The position numbers and the translations under genes were made by a program. 64,000 bases of DNA from assembly GCF_055900595.2 (NCBI RefSeq), contig NZ_CM148325.1; one strand, written 5' to 3'. Positions 5,251 to 57,563 of the stretch are shown one piece after another (within the stretch, counting starts at the first letter, position 1; every line of letters starts with the position of its first letter). Below the pieces are notes generated by a model. That model was not told the DNA's origin, made no database searches, and saw only the letters and a program-made list of their open reading frames with translations.

Positions 5251-5796
5251 GTGGACGATTTGACCGCACAAGCCCTGAAAGATTTTACTGCACGCTACTG
5301 CGATGCGTGGCATGAAGAGCATAAAAGCTGGCCGTTAAGTGAGGAACTGTACGGCGTTCCTTCACCGTGCATTATTTCAACCACCGAAGACGCTGTATAC
5401 TGGCAACCCCAGCCGTTTACCGGTGAACAAAATGTAAACGCGGTTGAACGTGCTTTTGATATTGTGATACAACCCACGGTTCATACTTTTTACACGACCC
5501 AGTTTGCCGGGGATATGCACGCGCAGTTTGGCGATATCAAACTGACATTGCTGCAAACCTGGAGTGAAGACGACTTCCGTCGGGTGCAGGAAAATCTGAT
5601 TGGTCATCTGGTGACTCAGAAAAGGCTAAAACTGCCGCCCACGCTATTTATCGCGACGCTGGAAGAAGAGTTAGAGGTCATCTCGGTGTGTAATCTCTCC
5701 GGTGAAGTGTGCAAAGAGACGCTGGGAACACGTAAACGGACGCATTTAGCCTCAAATCTTGCGGAATTCCTTAATCAACTTAAGCCTCTTCTGTAA
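5251..5796 (+). CDS. syd: SecY-interacting protein Syd
   Basis: 181-aa [38 protein letters not shown]... Confidence 0.88.
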
Positions 5797-6006: not shown

Positions 6007-6370
6007 GTCGACAGGGAGTCAGACAACGAAGTGAACATCAGGATGATGACACTTCTGCAGGACACACCAGGAGGGTGTTTCAGGGAAAGGCTTCTGGATG
6101 AAGCGAAGAGGATGACGCAGGACGCGTTAAAGGACACCTCCAGGATGGAGAATGAGAACCGGTCAGGATGATTCGGTGGGTCAGGAAGGCCAGGGACACT
6201 TCAGGATGAAGTATCACATCGGGGTGGTGTGAGCAGGAAGCAATAGTTCAGGATGAACGATTGGCCGCAAGGCCAGAGGAAAAGTTGTCAAGGATGAGCA
6301 GGGAGCAACAAAAGTAGCTGGAATGCTGCGAAACGAACCGGGAGCACTGTGAATACAGTGCTCCCTTTTT
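6007..6370 (+). ncRNA. csrB: CsrB small RNA (CsrA-sequestering)
   Basis: About 360 nt with no long ORF, many CAGGATG/AGGA motifs spaced along it, ending in a GC stem plus T-run; 5' end approximate. Confidence 0.9.
6339..6370 (+). terminator. csrB intrinsic terminator
   Basis: Stem GGGAGCACTG / CAGTGCTCCC followed by TTTTT. Confidence 0.8.
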
Positions 6371-6371
6371 G

Positions 6372-7085
6372 TGCACAGAAAACCCCCAGCTAGGCTGGGG
6401 GTTCCGGAAAGCTTTCAGCTTTGAGCCAGTTATTAAAACCCCTTTTGATTTGTTAAAACACCTTGCGGTCTGGCAACTGCAAGTGTCAAACAAGAAATCA
6501 AAAGGGGGTCCCAATGGGGGACGAAAAGAGCTTAGCGCACACCCGCTGGAACTGTAAATATCACATAGTTTTTGCGCCGAAATACCGAAGACTGGCGTTT
6601 TACGGAGAGAAGCGTAGGGCGATAGGCAGTATTTTGAGAAAGCTGTGTGAGTGGAAAAGCGTACGGATTCTGGAAGCAGAGTGCTGCGCAGATCATATCC
6701 ATATGCTTGTGGAAATCCCACCCAAAATGAGCGTATCCGGCTTTATGGGATATCTGAAAGGGAAAAGCAGTCTGATGCTTTACGAGCAGTTTGGGGATTT
6801 GAAATTCAAATACAGAAACAGGGAGTTCTGGTGCCGAGGGTACTATGTCGATACGGTGGGTAAGAACACGGCGAAGATACAGGACTACATAAAGCACCAG
6901 CTTGAAGAGGATAAAATGGGGGAGCAGTTATCGATTCCATATCCGGGCAGCCCGTTTACGGGCCGTAAGTAACGAAGTTGAATGCAAATGTCAGATCGTA
7001 TGCGCCTGTTAGGGCGCGGCTGGTAACAGAGCCTTACAGGCGCATTTGAAAAACCTCCGGCTATGCCGGAGGATATTTATTTTTA
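6372..7085 (+). mobile_element. IS200-like insertion sequence (IS200/IS605 family); boundaries approximate
   Basis: About 710 bp unit holding a 152-aa Y1-transposase ORF, a perfect palindrome CCCCCAGCTAGGCTGGGGG at the left end and stem-loops at the right end; no inverted terminal repeats, as expected for IS200. Confidence 0.72.
6514..6972 (+). CDS. tnpA: IS200 transposase TnpA (HUH/Y1 type)
   Basis: MGDEKSLAHTRWNCKYHIVFAPKYRR...HIHMLVEIPPKMSVSGFMGYLKGKSS...; 152 aa from the internal Met of ORF 6463..6972. Confidence 0.9.
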   Translation: MGDEKSLAHTRWNCKYHIVFAPKYRRLAFYGEKRRAIGSILRKLCEWKSVRILEAECCADHIHMLVEIPPKMSVSGFMGYLKGKSSLMLYEQFGDLKFKYRNREFWCRGYYVDTVGKNTAKIQDYIKHQLEEDKMGEQLSIPYPGSPFTGRK

Positions 7086-24469: not shown

Positions 24470-25375
24470 TTACCAGCGGCCAGACGCGCCGCCACCGCCA
24501 GAAGAACCGCCACCTCCGCTAAATCCGCCGCCACTTGAGCCGCCACCGGAAGAGGATGAAGAAGAACCTTTTCTTGAAGCTCTTTCTTTACCGAGCGTCT
24601 TGTATTTGGCTCGTAGCTTTTTATTAACGATAAGCCAAAAGATAAGCAGCGCTACGATCGCAAAAGGCGTTAACATACCGCAGGCAACGATTAAATTCGT
24701 CCATGGTCCTGGCTCGGCAACATAGAGGAATACCATCCCGTAAATTGCGGCAGTGAGAGTTATCCAGGGTAGATTCGACGGATCGGTAAAAACAATAAAA
24801 TATGAAAGCACTGCCAGCAATATAAGTACAGCAAGCGAAAATGGGATAGGGGGATTGATACTGTAATAATTCCCCCTGCCTTCCGGTAATTCACCATTCA
24901 TCAGAAGTGCGCCGATATTTTCGCTTGCCAGTGTTACCCCCCCCATCAGGTCATCACTTTTGAAAGCAGGGATTAATATATCACGGATAATCTTTGCCGC
25001 TTGCAGGTCGGTAACCACCCCTTCCAGCCCATAGCCGACTTCTATACGAACAGCATGATCTTCCCAGGCAACCAGAAGTAAAATGCCATCGTTTCGCTGC
25101 TTATCTCCCAGTTTCCAGCTATCAAAAACGCGTGTTGCATATTGTTCAATGGTATCGTCTCCGGTGGATGGCACTATTAATACGGCAACCTGTGCCCGTG
25201 TTTTTTGTGTAATATCCTGCAGCTGTTGTGTCAGTGATTGTTGTTCAGACGTGCTTAAGGTACCAGTAATATCGGTCACATGTTGGCGCAGCTCCGGCAC
25301 AGCAATTTGCTGGGCAAGCACAGGAAGGCACCATAAAGTGAGTAGAAAAAGGATTATACGCATAACGATCACCAA
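24470..25375 (-). CDS. TPM-domain membrane protein (YgcG family), paralog 1
   Basis: 301-aa ORF with signal peptide, TPM-like region, two TM segments and Gly/Ser tail ending GGGASGRW. Confidence 0.8.
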   Translation of the reverse strand: MVIVMRIILFLLTLWCLPVLAQQIAVPELRQHVTDITGTLSTSEQQSLTQQLQDITQKTRAQVAVLIVPSTGDDTIEQYATRVFDSWKLGDKQRNDGILLLVAWEDHAVRIEVGYGLEGVVTDLQAAKIIRDILIPAFKSDDLMGGVTLASENIGALLMNGELPEGRGNYYSINPPIPFSLAVLILLAVLSYFIVFTDPSNLPWITLTAAIYGMVFLYVAEPGPWTNLIVACGMLTPFAIVALLIFWLIVNKKLRAKYKTLGKERASRKGSSSSSSGGGSSGGGFSGGGGSSGGGGASGRW

Positions 25376-26517
25376 CGGCCGGATGAACCGCCACCGCCAG
25401 AAGAACCGCCGCCACCGCGGAAAGAGTTTTTCGACGAAGAGCGAGAATGAGCATTACGATTCCCCATTTTCCTGTTGATTTTATGTCCTGATCCCAGTTT
25501 AAGATTGCCAGTAAATTTGGCCACAATGATCAGCAGAACGATGCCAGCAATGGTTATTGGGCCGATAAAATGATCAATTAGCCCAATAATTGTTGAGATG
25601 AACGCAATATCTTTATTACTGGCAAATACCAGGCACCATCCCACAACAATTATCAGCAGCACGACAAACAATGAATTTCGTCCTGATTCACGAACCTGCG
25701 GAGCCTTCTTTTGTTTTTTCACTTTAGCGTTTTTATTTTGGGGGGCCAGCATCATAGGAAATGCGCGGCATATATTAAAAACTACCGCGAGACGCTGCCA
25801 GTAGATTGCTGCGAAAAATAAACTAAAACAAACGACCGATACCCGTCGAATGATGACATCGTTCTGAAAGCAGAAAAACCAGACCATAGGGGTAATCATC
25901 GATATCATCCATATGCCAGGCCCTGGATGGGTGGTAAATCGCCAGAGGACAACGATGGCAACGATCATCAGCAGTGTCCAGGCAAGACATGGCAGAGAGC
26001 GTTGCGGATTAGCAAACAGATGATTGGCTAAAGCATCCAAAGGGCTAAGATTCGCTTTTATATAGGTAAACTGTGCAATGCCTTCAATTCCCTGCGTTAA
26101 CCCGGAGAAGAGATTATTTTTTTTGAATTCCGGTTGCATATGGTAATGAACAATTTGCGCAGCTTGTTCCGGTGGCAGCATCTCTTCCAGTCCATGCCCA
26201 ATCTTCATTGACGCCAGCCCTTCCGGCCAAACGACGAGAATTAAGATACCTTCGCCGTACCGCTTCTCTCCAACAGGTTTCCAGTGATATAACCCGTAGC
26301 TTTGCGAGGCTGCAAGTTTAATGTCTTTACCCCCAGTGGTCGGCGTTACCAACACGGCAACCTGAAAGTGGTTTTGCTGCTCGAGAGTCTGTAATTGTTG
26401 AGTTAAAGCAGTTTGTTCTTCTGTCGTTAATGTCCCGGTTAAGTCAGTTACTGAAGGCAATTGTTCAGCGAATGCCTGGAAACCACATAGCATCAGAAGT
26501 AAGAGAAAAATACGCAT
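25369..26517 (-). CDS. TPM-domain membrane protein, paralog 2 (extended multi-TM region)
   Basis: 382-aa ORF, signal peptide plus TPM-like N-terminus, about five hydrophobic segments, tail GGGGSSGGGGSSGRW. Confidence 0.75.
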   Translation of the reverse strand: MRIFLLLLMLCGFQAFAEQLPSVTDLTGTLTTEEQTALTQQLQTLEQQNHFQVAVLVTPTTGGKDIKLAASQSYGLYHWKPVGEKRYGEGILILVVWPEGLASMKIGHGLEEMLPPEQAAQIVHYHMQPEFKKNNLFSGLTQGIEGIAQFTYIKANLSPLDALANHLFANPQRSLPCLAWTLLMIVAIVVLWRFTTHPGPGIWMISMITPMVWFFCFQNDVIIRRVSVVCFSLFFAAIYWQRLAVVFNICRAFPMMLAPQNKNAKVKKQKKAPQVRESGRNSLFVVLLIIVVGWCLVFASNKDIAFISTIIGLIDHFIGPITIAGIVLLIIVAKFTGNLKLGSGHKINRKMGNRNAHSRSSSKNSFRGGGGSSGGGGSSGRW

Positions 26518-26531
26518 TTCAATTCCTTTTG

Positions 26532-27464
26532 TTACCAGCGCCCGGAGGCGCCACCGCCGCCAGATGAACCGCCGCCGCCGCTGAAATTATCATTGTCAAA
26601 AGAGGATGAAGAGGAAGATGACGACGATGATGAAGAACGCCTGGAGGCCGAGTTACTTCTTTCGTAATGTGACGGTCGGTTGGCACTGCGCATCGAATCC
26701 CGAACCTTTTTGCCGAAGGGGGTAAAAGCGATGGCGACAGCCAGGAACGGTGTGGCGAAGCAGAGTAATGTTGCGAGTACTCCCCAGCTTCCGCTGAAAC
26801 CTGCTATAGGTAAAACAAAGGCCAGTACAATAGCTGTGAAGCAAATTAGTCCCAGCGTTTTGACATATCCTCTGGCGGAAATAAAGGTCAGTACTATTGC
26901 CCAGACTAACAAAGCCCACCAACCGTTAAAGGGCAAAGGGTGATCGGTCGGTGTTATCGTTGCTAAATTATTCCCCGTCAGACGATTATCAATATCGCTT
27001 ATTCCCTTTTGCAAGCCGCCAGCCAGGTCGCCATTTTTAAATGCCGGAATAATACTGTTGCGAATAATTTTCCCGGACTGCGCATCCGTAATAACGCCTT
27101 CCAGTCCGTAACCGACTTCAATACGCACGGTATGATCCTGCCAGGCGACTAACAGTAGAACGCCATCATCGCGGTCTTTATCACCCGGTTTCCAGCTATC
27201 GAATACCCGCGTAGCGTACTGCTCGATGGTTTCATCGCCCGTTGTTTCAACCACTAACACGACCAGTTGTGCGTGGCTTTTTTGCGTCAGCTCTTTAATC
27301 TGATTGGTCAACGTATTTACTTCATCGTTCGTCAATTTGCCGGTTAAGTCATTCACATACCTGGGTGATTCAGGTACTGGAATTTGTATGGCAAACACAG
27401 ATGAACAAAAGAAAGCCATAAGGAAGATAAAATTTCGCACAGGACTTCCTCGCTTAATGAGCAT
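26532..27464 (-). CDS. TPM-domain membrane protein, paralog 3
   Basis: 310-aa ORF, strongly similar to paralog 1 through ATRVFDSWKPGDK...LLLVAW..HTVRIEVGYGLEGV; Ser run and tail GGGGSSGGGGASGRW. Confidence 0.8.
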   Translation of the reverse strand: MLIKRGSPVRNFIFLMAFFCSSVFAIQIPVPESPRYVNDLTGKLTNDEVNTLTNQIKELTQKSHAQLVVLVVETTGDETIEQYATRVFDSWKPGDKDRDDGVLLLVAWQDHTVRIEVGYGLEGVITDAQSGKIIRNSIIPAFKNGDLAGGLQKGISDIDNRLTGNNLATITPTDHPLPFNGWWALLVWAIVLTFISARGYVKTLGLICFTAIVLAFVLPIAGFSGSWGVLATLLCFATPFLAVAIAFTPFGKKVRDSMRSANRPSHYERSNSASRRSSSSSSSSSSSSFDNDNFSGGGGSSGGGGASGRW

Positions 27465-28056
27465 TAGTATTCTGGCTAAAATCTATTGTCGGGGCTTTAC
27501 TCACAGCGGCGACATCATCCGGCAAATAATTTTTCTTTGGTGTGTAATCCATAACCTTTGCGGTTAACACTGCGGGGAATTTGCGGATAGTGACATTATA
27601 TTGTTCAATAGCTTTAATATATCTTCCTCGCGCAACGGCAATTCGATTTTCACTTCCTTCGAGCTGTACCATCAAATTTTGATAGAGTTCCTGGGCCTTT
27701 AGCTCAGGGTAACGTTCACTAATTATCGTTAACTGACCGAGAGTGCGAGACACCTGCGCCTGAGCTTGTTGCCAGGTTTGTAATTTTTGTTCATCTCCCG
27801 GAGTTTGCTGAAGAGCACTACTGGCGCGATTAGCCTGACTACGTGCCAATGTTACGGCTTCCAGTACCTCTTGTTCATGGCTGGAATAACCTTTAATACT
27901 GGCGACAAGATTAGGAATAAGATCGGCGCGACGTTGATATTGATTTAATACCTCAGACCAGGAAGCGTTAACCTGCTCATCATAGGTTTGAATATCGTTA
28001 TATCCACAGCCTGATAAATTGAAAATAAATATAATTACGATGAATGTTCTGAGCAT
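27454..28056 (-). CDS. lemA: LemA-family protein
   Basis: 200-aa ORF with N-terminal lipoprotein-like signal (LSGCGY) and coiled-coil-rich body typical of LemA; stop overlaps the start of TPM paralog 3. Confidence 0.8.
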   Translation of the reverse strand: MLRTFIVIIFIFNLSGCGYNDIQTYDEQVNASWSEVLNQYQRRADLIPNLVASIKGYSSHEQEVLEAVTLARSQANRASSALQQTPGDEQKLQTWQQAQAQVSRTLGQLTIISERYPELKAQELYQNLMVQLEGSENRIAVARGRYIKAIEQYNVTIRKFPAVLTAKVMDYTPKKNYLPDDVAAVSKAPTIDFSQNTNAH

Positions 28057-28128
28057 GGTTAAATCCCTTTTAATTAATTCCTTAAAACATAATACGCCAC
28101 TTCATTTTATTCTTTATGATCTAATCCA

Positions 28129-28137
28129 CTTTTTGCC
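28129..28137. repeat. IS10 target-site duplication, left copy (CTTTTTGCC)
   Basis: Identical 9-mer directly abuts both IS10 ends. Confidence 0.9.
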
Positions 28138-29466
28138 CTGAGAGATCCCCTCATAATTTCCCCAAAACGTAACCATGTGTGAATAGATTTTGAGTAAGCA
28201 GGGTTGCAGCCACGAGTGAGTCTTCCCTTGTTATTGTGTAGCCAGAATGCCGCAAAACTTCCATGCCTAAGCGAACTGTTGAGAGTACGTTTCGATTTCT
28301 GACTGTGTTAGCCTGGAAGTGCTTGTCCCAACCTTGTTTCTGAGCATGAACGCCCGCAAGCCAACATGTTAGTTGAAGCATCAGGGCGATTAGCAGCATG
28401 ATATCAAAACGCTCTGAGCTGCTCGTTCGGCTATGGCGTAGGCCTAGTCCGTAGGCAGGACTTTTCAAGTCTCGGAAGGTTTCTTCAATCTGCATTCGCT
28501 TCGAATAGATATTAACAAGTTGTTTGGGTGTTCGAATTTCAACAGGTAAGTTAGTTGCTAGAATCCATGGCTCCTTTGCCGACGCTGAGTAGATTTTAGG
28601 TGACGGGTGGTGACAATGAGTCCGTGTCGAGCGCTGATTTTTTCGGCCTTTAGAGCGAGATTTATACAATAGAATTTGGCATGAGATTGGATTGCTTTTA
28701 GTCAGCCTCTTATAGCCTAAAGTCTTTGAGTGACTAGATGACATATCATGTAAGTTGCTGATAGGTTTCCAGTTTTCCGCTCCTAGGTCTGCATATTGTA
28801 CTTTTCCTCTTACTCGACTTAACCAGTACCAACCCAGCTTCTCAACGGATTTATACCATGGCACTTTAAAGCCAGCATCACTGACAATGAGCGGTGTGGT
28901 GTTACTCGGTAGAATGCTCGCAAGGTCGGCTAGAAATTGGTCATGAGCTTTCTTTGAACATTGCTCTGAAAGCGGGAACGCTTTCTCATAAAGAGTAACA
29001 GAACGACCGTGTAGTGCGACTGAAGCTCGCAATACCATAAGCCGTTTTTGCTCACGGATATCAGACCAGTCAACAAGTACAATGGGCATCGTATTGCCCG
29101 AACAGATAAAGCTAGCATGCCAACGGTATACAGCGAGTCGCTCTTTGTGGAGGTGACGATTACCTAACAATCGGTCGATTCGTTTGATGTTATGTTTTGT
29201 TCTCGCTTTGGTTGGCAGGTTACGGCCAAGTTCGGTAAGAGTGAGAGTTTTACAGTCAAGTAAGGCGTGGCAAGCCAACGTTAAGCTGTTGAGTCGTTTT
29301 AAGTGTAATTCGGGGCAGAATTGGTAAAGAGAGTCGTGTAAAATATCGAGTTCGCACATTTTGTTGTCTGATTATTGATTTTTGGCGAAACCATTTGATC
29401 ATATGACAAGATGTGTATCCACCTTAACTTAATGATTTTTACCAAAATCATTAGGGGATTCATCAG
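28138..29466 (-). mobile_element. IS10 (IS4 family), complete 1329-bp copy
   Basis: Ends CTGAGAGATCCCCTCATAATTTCCCC (inside end) and, on the reverse strand, CTGATGAATCCCCTAATGATTTTGGT (outside end); exact length 1329 bp; 402-aa transposase; flanked by 9-bp direct repeat. Confidence 0.93.
28151..29359 (-). CDS. IS10 transposase
   Basis: 402-aa ORF MCELDILHDSLYQFCPELHLKRLNSLTLACHALLDCK... Confidence 0.93.
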   Translation of the reverse strand: MCELDILHDSLYQFCPELHLKRLNSLTLACHALLDCKTLTLTELGRNLPTKARTKHNIKRIDRLLGNRHLHKERLAVYRWHASFICSGNTMPIVLVDWSDIREQKRLMVLRASVALHGRSVTLYEKAFPLSEQCSKKAHDQFLADLASILPSNTTPLIVSDAGFKVPWYKSVEKLGWYWLSRVRGKVQYADLGAENWKPISNLHDMSSSHSKTLGYKRLTKSNPISCQILLYKSRSKGRKNQRSTRTHCHHPSPKIYSASAKEPWILATNLPVEIRTPKQLVNIYSKRMQIEETFRDLKSPAYGLGLRHSRTSSSERFDIMLLIALMLQLTCWLAGVHAQKQGWDKHFQANTVRNRNVLSTVRLGMEVLRHSGYTITREDSLVAATLLTQNLFTHGYVLGKL

Positions 29467-29475
29467 CTTTTTGCC
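29467..29475. repeat. IS10 target-site duplication, right copy (CTTTTTGCC)
   Basis: Matches 28129..28137 exactly. Confidence 0.9.
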
Positions 29476-29566
29476 TTAAACCTGCCTGTAACAGAATGTT
29501 AATAAGACATGATTGTTGTGGCAGGATCTGCAATAATTAACAATTATCCACTTCACAGAGAATGCT

Positions 29567-30238
29567 ATGCAGTACCCGATTAACGAGATGTTCCAGACCC
29601 TGCAAGGTGAGGGTTACTTTACCGGCGTCCCCGCCATTTTTATTCGTTTACAGGGATGCCCGGTCGGCTGTGCCTGGTGCGACACCAAACACACCTGGGA
29701 AAAGCTTGAGGATCGGGAAGTCTCCCTTTTCAGCATTCTGGCGAAGACCAAAGAGAGTGATAAGTGGGGGGCGGCGAGCAGTGAAGATTTGCTGGCTGTC
29801 ATTGGTCGTCAGGGATACACCGCGCGGCATGTGGTGATTACGGGTGGTGAGCCTTGCATTCATGATTTGCTGCCACTGACTGACCTGCTCGAAAAGAACG
29901 GTTTTAGCTGCCAGATCGAAACCAGCGGTACTCATGAAGTACGCTGCACGCCGAATACCTGGGTTACCGTATCGCCAAAGCTGAACATGCGCGGCGGCTA
30001 TGAAGTGTTGTCACAGGCACTGGAACGAGCCAACGAAATCAAGCATCCAGTGGGACGCGTACGTGATATTGAAGCACTGGATGAACTACTGGCAACGCTG
30101 ACCGATGATAAACCACGAGTCATTGCACTGCAGCCAATTAGCCAGAAGGACGATGCCACACGTTTGTGCATTGAAACCTGTATTGCGCGTAACTGGCGTT
30201 TATCGATGCAAACACATAAATATTTAAATATTGCCTGA
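29567..30238 (+). CDS. queE: 7-carboxy-7-deazaguanine synthase QueE (radical SAM)
   Basis: 223-aa ORF with CPVGCAWCDT radical-SAM cysteine motif. Confidence 0.9.
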   Translation: MQYPINEMFQTLQGEGYFTGVPAIFIRLQGCPVGCAWCDTKHTWEKLEDREVSLFSILAKTKESDKWGAASSEDLLAVIGRQGYTARHVVITGGEPCIHDLLPLTDLLEKNGFSCQIETSGTHEVRCTPNTWVTVSPKLNMRGGYEVLSQALERANEIKHPVGRVRDIEALDELLATLTDDKPRVIALQPISQKDDATRLCIETCIARNWRLSMQTHKYLNIA

Positions 30239-30576
30239 TTAAACATTTATAAGCGTTATAAATGGGTGGAACCTGTAAAGACTTCCACTCATTTATATTC
30301 TTTGTCGCCTCTGAAAAAACTCCATTTTGCCCATCCTGGACTAATCATTATCATTCTCTACAAATTCTCTGGCGTTAATTTTTCGTTGGAGTGAAAATTA
30401 TTGCGGTAAAGTTTGGTAGATTTTAGTGGGTATAGAGTTATTTTAAATATTTACTTTTTTAATCAATGGATTAAGTGTTCTTTAACATAATGGATGTGTT
30501 GTTTGTGTGATCCTGTAAAGTTGGTAGATTGTGACTGGCTTAAAAAATCATTAATTAATAATAGGTTATGTTTAGA

Positions 30577-31154
30577 GAGTTCCCCACGTCAGCGGGGATA
30601 AACCTTGCTCGATGCGGGCGTTAACTTTTTTATAGGCGAGTTCCCCGCGCCAGCGGGGATAAACCGCGTAATTTTGTACGCTCAACACGTAACTAAATGA
30701 GTTCCCCGCGCCAGCGGGGATAAACCGATCACCAGTGCGGATTGTTCAAATAGTGCCTGGAGTTCCCCGCGCCAGCGGGGATAAACCGAGAGCTATATCG
30801 CAGCGTTTAACTGGATGACAGAGTTCCCCGCGCCAGCGGGGATAAACCGGTGTTTTTTGCCATCTGAACTGTGGCACGCCGGAGTTCCCCGCGCCAGCGG
30901 GGATAAACCGTCTATAATGTCTCATCCGGGGTTAATTCAATCGAGTTCCCCGCGCCAGCGGGGATAAACCGATCAGCCCCACATCCGGTTTTGCCAGCAA
31001 CGTGAGTTCCCCGCGCCAGCGGGGATAAACCGTAAGATGATCTCACGGAATTGAACGAACTACGGAGTTCCCCGCGCTAGCGGGGATAAACCGGACACAG
31101 AGCGCCGCTATAGCGCCTATGCCAAGAGTTCCCCGCACCAGCGGGAATAAACCA
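30577..31154 (+). CRISPR. Type I-E CRISPR array (CRISPR 2.3-like): 10 repeats, 9 spacers of 32 nt
   Basis: 29-nt repeat GAGTTCCCCGCGCCAGCGGGGATAAACCG at 61-bp period starting 30577, 30638, ... 31126; first and last repeats degenerate; AT-rich leader-like region 30240..30576. Confidence 0.95.
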
Positions 31155-47593: not shown

Positions 47594-47855
47594 ATATTGC
47601 CGGATAAAATAAACGCCTCTGTCAGAAATGATGGGGCGTTTTTATTTTGCGAGCAGCATTCCGGCATTTAAACGTGAATATAGCAAGGGAAATCAACAGT
47701 TATAGAATGGCGTCGGGTGCTTGAGGCTGTCTGGCGTTGAGCATTCGCGAGGTTCCAGATGGACAAAAGCCCCAGGCGATATTTCTATCAACCTGAGGCT
47801 CGCGTTCGAACGTAGCAATTCGGATGTTAGTCTCTTCTTTGCAGGGAGGCAAGAC

Positions 47856-48008
47856 ATGCTGACAAAATATGCCCTTGTGGCAATCATCGTACTGTGTTGT
47901 ACAGTACTGGGATTCACGCTGATGGTAGGCGACTCGTTGTGTGAGTTGAGTATCAGAGAACGTGGTATGGAGTTTAAGGCAGTTCTCGCTTACGAATCGA
48001 AGAAGTAG
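47856..48008 (+). CDS. Hok/Gef-family type I toxin peptide (hokX-like)
   Basis: 50 aa [50 protein letters not shown]: one TM helix plus Hok C-terminal signature; GGGAGG RBS at 47844; GC hairpin ACGCGGGGGTAAAACCCCGCGT follows the stop. Confidence 0.7.
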
Positions 48009-48246: not shown

Positions 48247-50904
48247 GTGACTTTCTTTGATTTCTGGGGAAAAACCCGACGTGGCGAGAAAGAGGGTGGC
48301 GACGATTATCACCTTCTTTGCTGGCATTCGCTGGATGTAGCCGCGATAGGCTATTTAATGGTCAAAAACAACTGTTTCGGGCTGGCTGACTATTTTCGTC
48401 AATTAGGTTTCGCTGACACGGATCAGGCAGCACAATTTTTCGCCTGGTTGTTGTGCTGGCACGATACTGGAAAATTTGCCCGCTCATTTCAGCAACTTTA
48501 CCTGCACCCACAACTCAAGGTTCCGGAAGGCGCAAGAAAGAATTACGAAAAGATCTCTCATTCAACGCTGGGTTACTGGTTGTGGCATCATTATTTAATT
48601 GAATGTGAAGAGTTGCTTCCTTCATCTTCACTCTCTTTGCGCAAACTTAAACGGGTAATAGATATGTGGATGCCCGTGACGACCGGGCATCATGGTCGGC
48701 CTCCTGACCGTATCGATGAACTGGACAACTTTCTGCCTGAAGACAAAGCTGCCGCACGAGATTTTCTCCTTGCAATCAAGTCACTGTTTCCGCTCATAGA
48801 GATCCCCACATTCTGGGATGATGACGAGGGCGTTGAACTTATAAAACATCTTTCCTGGTATATATCTGCAACCGTCGTACTCGCAGACTGGACGGGATCG
48901 TCAACGCGGTTTTTTCCACGCGTCGCACATGTAATGGATATTAAAGATTACTGGCAGAATGCTTTAGCTCAGGCTCAAAACGCATTAACCGTCTTTCCTC
49001 CAAAAGCAGAAACCGCACCTTTCACTGGAATTAACACGCTGTTTCCTTTTATTGAGAACCCAACACCGTTACAGCAAAAGGTGCTGGATCTGGATATCAG
49101 CCAGCCAGAACCGCAGTTGTTTATTCTGGAAGATGTGACTGGCGCAGGTAAAACAGAAGCGGCGCTTATCCTGGCGCACAGGTTGATGTCTGCGGGTAAC
49201 GCTCAGGGGCTGTTTTTTGGTTTGCCGACAATGGCAACGGCCAATGCCATGTACGATAGGCTGGTCAAAACCTGGCTTGCTTTCTATTCGCCGGAATCCC
49301 GCCCCAGCCTGGTGCTGGCACACAGCGCTCGTTCGCTAATGGATCGCTTTAACGCATCGCTGTGGTCTGGTGATTTTGTGGGGTCAGAAGAACCGGATGA
49401 ACAAGCGTTCAGTCAGGGATGTGCGGCCTGGTTTGCTGGCAGTAACAAGAAGGCGTTGCTGGCTGAAATTGGCGTCGGCACGCTGGATCAGGCGATGATG
49501 GCGGTGATGCCGTTCAAACATAATAATCTGCGGCTTCTGGGGCTGAGTAACAAAATCCTGCTAGCCGATGAGATCCACGCCTGTGACGCTTATATGTCGT
49601 GCATTCTTGAAGGGCTGATCGAGCGGCAGGCGCGTGGCGGAAACAGCGTTATTTTGCTTTCTGCTACGTTGTCTCAACAGCAGCGTGACAAACTCGTCGC
49701 CGCCTTTGCGCGTGGTGCAGAGGGCCAGCAAGAAGCTCCGTTGCTGGAAAAAGATGATTATCCCTGGCTGACGCATGTCACGAAATCCGATGTGCATTCG
49801 CACCGGGTAGCGACGCGCAAAGACGTTGAGCGCAGCGTGAGTGTGGGTTGGCTTCATAGCGAACAAGAGTGTATTGCGCGTATCGAATCGGCGGTAAGTC
49901 AGGGGAAATGCATCGCCTGGATTCGGAATTCTGTCGATGACGCCATCCAGGTTCATCGTCAGCTGCTTGCCCGCGGCGTCATTCCTGCTTCCAGCCTTTC
50001 ACTTTTTCATAGCCGCTTTGCTTTTAGCGATCGCCAGCGAATTGAAACGGAGACGCTGGCACGCTTTGGTAAAGAAGACTGTTCACAGCGTGCCGGAAAA
50101 GTCCTCATTTGTACTCAGGTCCTGGAGCAGAGCGTCGACTGCGACCTGGACGAAATGATTTCCGACCTTGCCCCTGTTGATTTACTGATCCAGCGAGCAG
50201 GGCGATTACAGCGACATATCCGCGATATTAATGGTCAGTTAAAGCGTGACGGTAAAGACGAGCGTCACCCTCCTGTATTGCTGATTCTGGCCCCCGTCTG
50301 GGACGACTCTCCGGGTGAAGAATGGTTTGCCAGTGCCATGCGTAACAGTGCATTTGTCTATCCCGATCATGGGCGAATCTGGTTGACGCAGCGTGTGCTG
50401 CGTGAACAAGGCGCGATTCAGATGCCACACTCAGCCCGGCTTCTGATTGAATCAGTCTACGGTGAGGACGTGGTAATGCCGGAAGGGTTTGCCCGCAGCG
50501 AGCAGGAGCAAGTGGGCAAATACTACTGCGATCGTTCAATGGCTAATAAGTTTGTGCTGAACTTCAGGCCCGGCTATGCCGCCAATATCAACGATTACCT
50601 TCCGGAAAAACTGTCGACACGTCTGGCTGAGGAGTCTGTTTCCTTGTGGTTGGCTACCTGTATTGACGGTGTGGTGAAGCCTTATGCCACTGGCGCTCAC
50701 GCATGGGAAATGAGCGTTGTCAGAGCGCGCCAAAGCTGGTGGAAAAAACATCGGGATGAGTTTTCTTTACTGGAAGGGGATGCGTTCAGGCAGTGGTGCG
50801 TTGAACAGCGGCAAGATCCGGAGATGGTAAATGTGATTTTAGTTACCGATGACGAAAGTTGCGGGTATTCGGCTACGGAGGGATTGATTGGCAAGGTTGG
50901 TTGA
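48247..50904 (+). CDS. cas3: Cas3 HD-nuclease/helicase (type I-E)
   Basis: 885-aa ORF (GTG start) with HD motifs, Walker A TGAGKTEAAL and DEIH box. Confidence 0.9.
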   Translation: MTFFDFWGKTRRGEKEGGDDYHLLCWHSLDVAAIGYLMVKNNCFGLADYFRQLGFADTDQAAQFFAWLLCWHDTGKFARSFQQLYLHPQLKVPEGARKNYEKISHSTLGYWLWHHYLIECEELLPSSSLSLRKLKRVIDMWMPVTTGHHGRPPDRIDELDNFLPEDKAAARDFLLAIKSLFPLIEIPTFWDDDEGVELIKHLSWYISATVVLADWTGSSTRFFPRVAHVMDIKDYWQNALAQAQNALTVFPPKAETAPFTGINTLFPFIENPTPLQQKVLDLDISQPEPQLFILEDVTGAGKTEAALILAHRLMSAGNAQGLFFGLPTMATANAMYDRLVKTWLAFYSPESRPSLVLAHSARSLMDRFNASLWSGDFVGSEEPDEQAFSQGCAAWFAGSNKKALLAEIGVGTLDQAMMAVMPFKHNNLRLLGLSNKILLADEIHACDAYMSCILEGLIERQARGGNSVILLSATLSQQQRDKLVAAFARGAEGQQEAPLLEKDDYPWLTHVTKSDVHSHRVATRKDVERSVSVGWLHSEQECIARIESAVSQGKCIAWIRNSVDDAIQVHRQLLARGVIPASSLSLFHSRFAFSDRQRIETETLARFGKEDCSQRAGKVLICTQVLEQSVDCDLDEMISDLAPVDLLIQRAGRLQRHIRDINGQLKRDGKDERHPPVLLILAPVWDDSPGEEWFASAMRNSAFVYPDHGRIWLTQRVLREQGAIQMPHSARLLIESVYGEDVVMPEGFARSEQEQVGKYYCDRSMANKFVLNFRPGYAANINDYLPEKLSTRLAEESVSLWLATCIDGVVKPYATGAHAWEMSVVRARQSWWKKHRDEFSLLEGDAFRQWCVEQRQDPEMVNVILVTDDESCGYSATEGLIGKVG

Positions 50905-56862: not shown

Positions 56863-57563
56863 GTGTTCCCCGCGCTAGCGGGGATAAACCGGTAATAAAT
56901 TCTTTGTGCGCGAAGAAATGAAGGTGTTCCCCGCGCTAGCGGGGATAAACCACGTGGCAACAATATTCCGCTGCTTTAACGCAAGTGTTCCCCGCGCTAG
57001 CGGGGATAAACCGGCGGCGATCATCTTTGACGCCGACCTGTTTCGGTGTTCCCCGCGCTAGCGGGGATAAACCGCGCTACCACAGGTCGCTACCGCATGG
57101 GCTTCAGTGTTCCCCGCGCTAGCGGGGATAAACCGCGGTCATATTGCGCCTGCACAGACTCACTGCGGTGTTCCCCGCGCTAGCGGGGATAAACCGGGGC
57201 AGGGAAATCACGGGCACGGTGACGATATGTGTTCCCCGCGCTAGCGGGGATAAACCGCCAAAACCATGACGTTCTCACTATCGGATGTGGTGTTCCCCGC
57301 GCTAGCGGGGATAAACCGTGGCCACCGGCAAAGAAAAAACGGAGTTCTGGCGTGTTCCCCGCGCCAGCGGGGATAAACCGGAAACTGTACTTGATGCGCT
57401 GAAAGCGATGGGGTGTTCCCCGCGCCAGCGGGGATAAACCGATGGCCCAGGGATTTGTTCAGTCCAGCGTGCCGTGTTCCCCGCGCCAGCGGGGATAAAC
57501 CGCTCTCGGTTCTGGGGTACTGTTACCCATAACTGAGCTCCCCCGCGTCAGCGGGGAACTCCC
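56863..57563 (+). CRISPR. Type I-E CRISPR array (CRISPR I): 12 repeats, 11 spacers
   Basis: 29-nt repeat GTGTTCCCCGCGC(T/C)AGCGGGGATAAACCG at 61-bp period (one 33-nt spacer); terminal repeat degenerate (GAGCTCCCCCGCGTCAGCGGGGAACTCCC). Confidence 0.96.

Follow-up and report, generated by a model that had tools for sequence, protein, structure and literature searches.

IS10 moves by non-replicative, cut-and-paste transposition with a 9-bp staggered cleavage of the target, and the role of Dam GATC sites at the pIN promoter and the inside end is established knowledge for this element. The closest described relatives of the copy studied here are the two arms of Tn10. IS10-Right (GenBank J01829; plasmid R100, next to tetD) is 1,329 bp long, has both ends, a 402-aa DDE transposase, RNA-IN/RNA-OUT control and two Dam sites, and is associated with a 9-bp duplication; all of these features are common to the present copy. 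IS10-Left lies on the other side of Tn10 (R100, next to jemA/gltS). Iso-IS10 elements are also carried by Shigella.

Beyond mobility, IS10 can influence genes next to it. Read-through from its outward promoter pOUT amounts to about 10% of lacUV5 according to a review (PMC9330008). In rpoS-null E. coli that had been evolved, otsBA owes its activation to such read-through, and 19 of the 21 up-regulating mutants carried IS10 with pOUT facing the gene (PMC2744996); in Salmonella DT204 a selected IS10 insertion places pOUT toward acrEF (PMC9330008). In both systems IS10 sits just upstream with pOUT reading into the gene, as it does at queE in the locus described here. The otsBA and acrEF insertions arose repeatedly under selection and demonstrably increased expression, whereas the queE case is a single unselected observation; as a further difference, queE probably retains a proximal promoter region of its own.

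Here we characterize an IS10 copy between lemA and queE in a 64-kb stretch of E. coli chromosome (the window; all coordinates refer to it). It is a known element with known behaviour at a new, strain-private site. We are highly confident that the locus records a genuine, recent transposition of an iso-IS10, private to the strain and neutral or mildly regulatory in its effect.

Anatomy of the element

The element spans 28138..29466 on the minus strand and bears the RefSeq label 'ISVsa5 family'. In canonical numbering, bp 1 (outside end) corresponds to window position 29466 and bp 1329 (inside end) to 28138. Sequence reading and an end-motif search place the start of the inside end, CTGAGAGATCCCCTCATAATTT, at 28138 and the terminus of the outside end, CTGATGAATCCCCTAATGATTT on the minus strand, at 29466. 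The terminal inverted repeats form the characteristic imperfect pair, with the outside CTGATGAATCCCC... and the inside CTGAGAGATCCCC... both exact, in an element of IS10 length. They occupy 29444..29466 (minus strand) and 28138..28160 (plus strand) and share 17 of their first 23 bp. A degenerate end search, for which the chance expectation is 0, returned no further IS10 ends in the 64-kb window. The sequence-only reading had described a complete, in-place IS10 of 1,329 bp with canonical ends and an intact 402-aa transposase, and on each of these points it is borne out.

Within the element, the motif GATC is found at just two places, both of them canonical Dam sites: one lies in the pIN promoter region (29397..29400; IS bp 67-70) and the other in the inside end (28144-28147; IS bp 1320-1323). 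We take pIN to start at the published IS bp 81, which is window position 29386, and the IHF site presumably lies within IS bp 1-82, a segment identical to IS10-Right that includes the outside-end repeat.

The transposase gene (28151..29359, minus strand) is a single long open reading frame encoding an intact IS4-family DDE enzyme, which scores 402 bits against NCBIfam NF033591 (IS4 family transposase; cutoff, 152) and is identical to WP_001352368.1. It carries D97, D161 and E292, which we take, following the Tn10 literature, to be the catalytic triad. The start of the gene is overlapped by the antisense RNA-OUT (29352..29421, plus strand), a full-length match (1-70) to Rfam RF00240 at 97.3 bits against a gathering threshold of 41; the element thus has the pOUT-driven antisense RNA of IS10.

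With its two ends, its pair of Dam sites, its DDE transposase and its pOUT/RNA-OUT unit all intact, this copy should still be mobile. Its apparent mobility also accords with the fresh, perfect duplication around it and with the identical or near-identical multi-copy elements found in wild genomes.

Target site and recovered empty site

The element is bounded by two copies of the 9-bp repeat CTTTTTGCC, at 28129..28137 on the left and 29467..29475 on the right, so that the perfect duplication noted from the sequence is confirmed at both positions. To compare the site with related genomes, as the sequence-only reading had proposed, the flanks were searched separately (left, 27400-28137; right, 29467-30300) against 5,426 complete E. 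coli genomes. In every close relative, the left-flank and right-flank BLAST matches overlap by exactly 9 bp; in NZ_CP098223.1, for instance, they fall at 3721537-3722274 and 3720712-3721545.

Once the element and one repeat are removed, the window aligns to E. coli Z0117EC0005 over 1,162 bp, end to end, with one mismatch and no gaps. This is the closest E. coli genome, and positions 1-28137 of the window are colinear with it, without gaps, at 99.964% identity. The lemA-queE intergenic region of the relatives measures 172 bp and holds a single CTTTTTGCC, in agreement with the two distances that flank the element here (81 + 100 - 9 = 172). The uninterrupted site is thereby recovered, and the gapless alignment of the empty site, together with the exact 9-bp overlap of the flanks, indicates that the 9-bp repeat is no chance match.

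The target conforms partly to the IS10 consensus. CTTTTTGCC (GGCAAAAAG on the other strand) contains one half-site (GC) of the consensus NGCTNAGCN (relaxed, NRCNNNGYN) and agrees with it at 3 of the 6 core positions. The targets of the wild IS10 copies that we examined mostly end in ...GCC or GCN, and non-consensus insertion sites are documented (PMC2744996, PMC4574204). In the proposed course of events, the transposase would have made 9-bp staggered cuts at this half-consensus target, the iso-IS10 would have entered the 172-bp divergent intergenic region by cut-and-paste, and gap repair would have duplicated the 9 bp.

Relation to the Tn10 arms and to wild copies

The sequence-only reading had called the element an exact IS10, a description that suits its length and ends but not its sequence. 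As reference arms, both Tn10 copies of IS10 were extracted from plasmid R100. We assigned the R100 arm taken as IS10-Right on the assumption that the Tn10 gene order is IS10L-jemA...tetD-IS10R; this tetD-side copy matches the IS10-Right outside-end and RNA-IN sequences. The arms disagree at 15 positions. In the window copy, four of these (bp 24, 25, 27 and 47) have the base of the right arm and the remaining eleven that of the left.

The window copy and IS10-Right agree over IS bp 1-82, 108-409 and 904-1248 and differ at 11 nucleotides (bp 83, 107, 410, 425, 903, 1249, 1268, 1271, 1272, 1281 and 1300), so that nucleotide identity with the canonical element (J01829/R100 right arm) was not found. 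The differences at bp 83 and 107 fall within the RNA-IN/RNA-OUT overlap, and the transposase departs from the IS10-Right protein by V266I, L381S, A389T and A398V. IS10-Left is closer. It is identical to the window copy over bp 48-1329 and encodes the same protein, WP_001352368.1; the 4 differences (bp 24, 25, 27 and 47) lie in the outside end and the pIN -35 region.

Six wild chromosomal copies (from 55989, AF56, CFSAN061769, APEC O2-211, KSC9 and MSHS133) were compared at the 15 arm-distinguishing positions. All six are of IS10-Right type at bp 24, 25 and 27 and of IS10-Left type from bp 410 onward, and among these positions they vary solely at bp 47, 83 and 107. Each has its own flanking 9-mers, which form a perfect duplication in five of the six. 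Over the full 1,329 bp, the window copy is matched at 100% identity by those of 55989 (EAEC) and AF56 (a blood isolate), which occupy other genomic sites (yafC/dkgB and cdgI), each with its own 9-bp duplication, and are annotated 'IS4-like element ISVsa5 family'. Judged by its sequence, the window element is a natural mosaic iso-IS10 with an outside end of IS10-Right type and a body of IS10-Left type. Wild E. coli harbours IS10 copies in which an outside end of IS10-Right type is paired with the transposase of 'IS10-Left', an element supposed to be defective.

This composition bears on whether the insertion is present in the real strain at all. A clone of the region might have acquired its IS10 in a Tn10-derived host such as DH10B, DH5alpha, JM109 or XL1-Blue, or an assembler might have misplaced a repeat. 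The sequence-only reading had raised such a laboratory origin, and its general premise is sound, as the movement of IS10 out of laboratory E. coli and into clones has been documented repeatedly (PMC4574204, PMC11481808, PMC11148124); the insertion, moreover, is found in no other genome. The IS10 copies of laboratory K-12 and B derivatives are, however, Tn10 arms: DH10B carries two IS10R copies and one IS10L, JM109 one IS10R and two IS10L, XL1-Blue IS10R plus Tn10, and NEB5alpha IS10L (PMC11148124, PMC11481808). IS10-Left-type copies have also been found hopped in BL21-Gold, NEB5alpha and JM109, and the laboratory copy that we checked, BL21-Gold fhuA::IS10, is of pure IS10-Left type.

The window copy equals neither Tn10 arm and reproduces exactly the mosaic of wild isolates, which makes a hop from a laboratory host, and hence contamination of that kind, unlikely on sequence grounds. 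The perfect 9-bp duplication with exact ends indicates true transposition rather than simple misassembly, and the surrounding 64 kb form a clean, colinear chromosome. Had IS10 hopped while the strain itself was being passaged in the laboratory, the picture would be the same. Taken as a whole, an artefactual origin appears highly improbable.

Distribution of the insertion

The junction between flank and element, queried with a 600-bp probe at a coverage of at least 80%, was absent from all 5,426 complete E. coli genomes. Conversely, a 600-bp probe for the empty site was spanned unbroken in 1,453 of the 1,454 lemA-bearing genomes, and K-12-type genomes in a sample spread over the ranking crossed the empty site as one piece. 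Across 25 contigs read for an identical LemA protein, the empty 172-bp lemA-queE region was present in all seven of the places listed. The exact junction strings gave no match in GTDB representative genomes and none in JGI metagenome contigs, and no parallel insertion at the lemA-queE locus was found among 5,421 genomes.

The absence of the junction elsewhere, combined with 99.96% identity to an uninterrupted relative, points to a recent, lineage-private event. The IS10 insertion is real, precise, recent and private to one E. coli strain. The element itself is widespread: about a fifth of the complete E. coli genomes (1,173 of 5,426) have it in full length, at up to 45 places per genome. As Shigella has iso-IS10 too, a Shigella origin of the window was considered, but it is unlikely: the window is colinear with an E. 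coli chromosome, its type I-E cas operon is intact, and its sole other insertion sequence is an IS200 copy that the relative shares.

The neighbouring genes lemA and queE

On the inside-end side, lemA (27454..28056, minus strand; 200 aa; Pfam PF04011) is the first gene of a lemA-TPM cluster and runs in the same direction as the transposase gene, with its ATG (28056) 81 bp from the element. On the outside-end side, queE (29567..30238, plus strand; 223 aa; TIGR04322 at 368 bits against a cutoff of 200; RefSeq annotation) has its ATG (29567) 100 bp away. Both distances agree with those first read from the sequence. RefSeq names the corresponding genes of relatives, which are 99.9-100% identical, 'LemA family protein', 'TPM domain-containing protein' and 'queE'.

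The two sides of the intergenic region differ in conservation. The queE-proximal block of 91 bp (29476..29566, plus strand) is 100% identical to K-12, whereas to the left of it the empty site is only about 80% identical, and the change starts at the target 9-mer. Given this break in conservation, the element leaves the conserved queE-proximal block joined to queE. What remains of the lemA 5′ end in K-12 is yqcG (46 aa, 'cell envelope stress response protein').

Work in K-12 suggests that the DNA upstream of queE matters for its regulation. Phosphorylated PhoP binds the first 300 bp upstream of queE as well as the 300 bp beyond these, and an mgrB mutant that lacks yqcG transcribes queE at a very high level and filaments strongly (PMC4974570). 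QueE dosage sets cell length (PMC11142719), and over-production of QueE blocks division (PMC4974570, PMC11142719). Displacement of the lemA-side DNA by 1.3 kb could, by analogy, alter the control of queE in this strain.

On the queE side of the element, a single base separates the duplication from a weak PhoP-box-like match, TGTTACAGGCAGGTTTA (29477-29493, minus strand; 2 mismatches). Matches of such quality are frequent: 58 were counted in 12.7 kb at up to 3 mismatches, against about 37 expected. The supplement to PMC4974570 gives no PhoP-box positions. If the site serves lemA/yqcG, the insertion would have cut lemA off from it, but this is only a lead.

Outward transcription toward both neighbours

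The outside end of the element faces queE and the inside end faces lemA. We take pOUT to start at the published IS bp 115, which is window position 29352 and coincides with the start of the Rfam RNA-OUT match, 215 nt from the queE ATG. Since this match is on the plus strand, pOUT fires toward queE. A terminator scan with folding detected no terminator-like site between pOUT and queE, nor between IS bp 1000 and lemA. Two hairpins appear in the predicted fold, one belonging to RNA-OUT and the other, AT-only, located at the outside end; no U-run follows directly on either. The orientation proposed from the sequence, with the outside end and pOUT directed at queE, is supported by these results.

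Outward promoters have also been described at the other end. According to PMC11481808, pIII and OUTIIp are reported to read out through the inside end, which here would be toward lemA, and their reported location, IS bp 1000-1230, corresponds to 28237..28467 on the minus strand. This segment is identical to IS10-Right, with 0 differences between bp 904 and 1248. These reported inside-end promoters facing lemA did not figure in the sequence-only reading. From the layout of the element, we infer that lemA and queE may both be exposed to IS-borne outward transcription.

A sigma-70 consensus scan of the interrupted and empty sites gave no convincing native promoter, and it missed the known pOUT and pIN as well, so that this negative result does not bear on the lemA and queE promoters. 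Inspection by eye of either junction between element and flank suggested no convincing hybrid promoter.

Consequences for queE and lemA

Effects of the insertion on the expression of queE and lemA are plausible from this arrangement. queE probably keeps its own proximal control through the 91-bp block and would gain a modest, constitutive read-through from pOUT. At the same time, it is shifted 1.3 kb from the lemA/yqcG-side DNA, which influences PhoP-dependent queE expression in K-12. lemA retains only 81 bp of native upstream DNA, and it would rely on any promoter within these 81 bp and on read-through from the element (pIII/OUTIIp and the transposase transcript).

These possible effects raise the question of selection. 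The insertion might have been favoured because it provides constitutive, PhoP-independent queE expression through pOUT or removes upstream repression, a scenario that we consider very unlikely. Its expected outcome, equally doubtful, would be altered QueE-dependent division control or queuosine supply, or a lemA-TPM operon that is shut down or re-driven. Several features are compatible with such adaptive rewiring: pOUT faces queE with no intervening terminator, selected pOUT-facing insertions of IS10 are known from otsBA and acrEF (PMC2744996, PMC9330008), the loss of yqcG upstream of queE in K-12 raises queE expression and filamentation (PMC4974570), and the conserved 91-bp queE-proximal block is left intact. 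The insertion nevertheless occurs once, in one strain, with no parallels at the locus among the 5,421 genomes, which is the pattern expected of a neutral, recent event. Over-production of QueE, which blocks division, is also likely to be costly (PMC4974570, PMC11142719).

A related idea, to which we give a small chance, is that the insertion is non-neutral in that it uncouples QueE from PhoQ/PhoP control and severs lemA-TPM from the PhoP-box-like element. If this is true, filamentation or a changed queuosine supply might appear under Mg2+ limitation or antimicrobial-peptide stress. A genuine, recent transposition with neutral or mildly regulatory consequences remains the reading that we prefer.

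The locus illustrates cleanly how a precise insertion can be matched to its empty site, and it may serve as a strain marker. It may also represent a natural perturbation of queE. As QueE dosage governs the division block triggered by PhoQ/PhoP, the split promoter region is relevant to work on PhoPQ, queuosine and lemA-TPM. Past strain-level annotation, the insertion of so common an element has little importance.

The IS10 form of wild E. coli

The IS10 copies of wild E. coli, among them the element at window 28138-29466 (compared at loci L002, L014 and L016-L021), are mosaic relative to the two arms of Tn10. Their outside end is of the IS10-Right type at bp 24, 25 and 27, while the body is of the IS10-Left type across bp 410-1300, and their transposase is the 'IS10-Left' protein WP_001352368.1. 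The literature describes the IS10-Left transposase as inactive or weak. Wild genomes nevertheless hold the mosaic form as a multi-copy element, and a single genome can have as many as 45 IS10 places. This suggests that the changes in its end and in pIN, not the protein, account for the IS10-Left defect.

Genes flanking the insertion

On the queE side, the 91 bp upstream of the gene (29476-29566) are 100% identical to K-12, whereas the adjoining DNA is only ~80% identical. This block is probably the queE regulatory core. It contains an inverted repeat, CCTGCC...GGCAGG (29481-29525), and a PhoP-box-like match, TGTTACAGGCAGGTTTA (29477-29493, minus strand, 2 mismatches), which is a lead only given the high background rate of such matches. 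Among the complete E. coli genomes searched, one, FXCREC004 (NZ_CP196743.1; H185), matches the 600-bp empty-site probe only partially, from ~96 bp inside queE onward; the queE 5′ end and promoter region are thus deleted or replaced in that strain.

On the other side, lemA (27454-28056, minus strand) is present at this locus in only 1,454 of 5,426 complete genomes. Its start region and signal-peptide-like residues are common to K-12 yqcG, and K-12 lacks both the remainder of lemA and the two TPM genes. K-12 yqcG, a 46-aa 'cell envelope stress response protein', is a 5′ remnant of lemA (window 28022-28137 versus 5558-5698 of the K-12 locus, L006). The two genes downstream of lemA (25369-27464) encode products of 310 and 382 aa, named TPM domain-containing proteins by RefSeq in relatives. 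Both proteins carry the same Gly/Ser-rich C-terminal tail, GGGGSSGGGG(S/A)SGRW, and the 310-aa protein additionally contains 12 consecutive serines. In the nearly identical relative, RefSeq classes the counterpart of this protein's gene as a pseudogene, incomplete, whereas the window ORF is whole.

CRISPR-Cas and RNA features

The window holds two type I-E CRISPR arrays (30577-31154 and 56863-57502) of 10 and 11 repeats, with a 29-bp repeat and 61-bp spacing. The first array is flanked by queE and ygcE, and the second adjoins iap and the cas genes. In the closest relative, Z0117EC0005, spacer content differs and the alignment breaks at both arrays. In the window, an intact cas3 (48247-50904, 885 aa) is preceded by a complete type I-E cas operon, whereas cas3 of Z0117EC0005 (L005 15346-18105) has a 1.46-kb deletion and, just upstream, an IS421 insertion that is absent from the window.

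Rfam matches comprise the sok antitoxin RNA (47715-47871), adjoining a hok/gef gene upstream of cas3, the CsrB sRNA (6016-6375) and STnc490 (6381-6504). The 5′ end of an IS200 element common to the window and Z0117EC0005 accounts for the STnc490 match.
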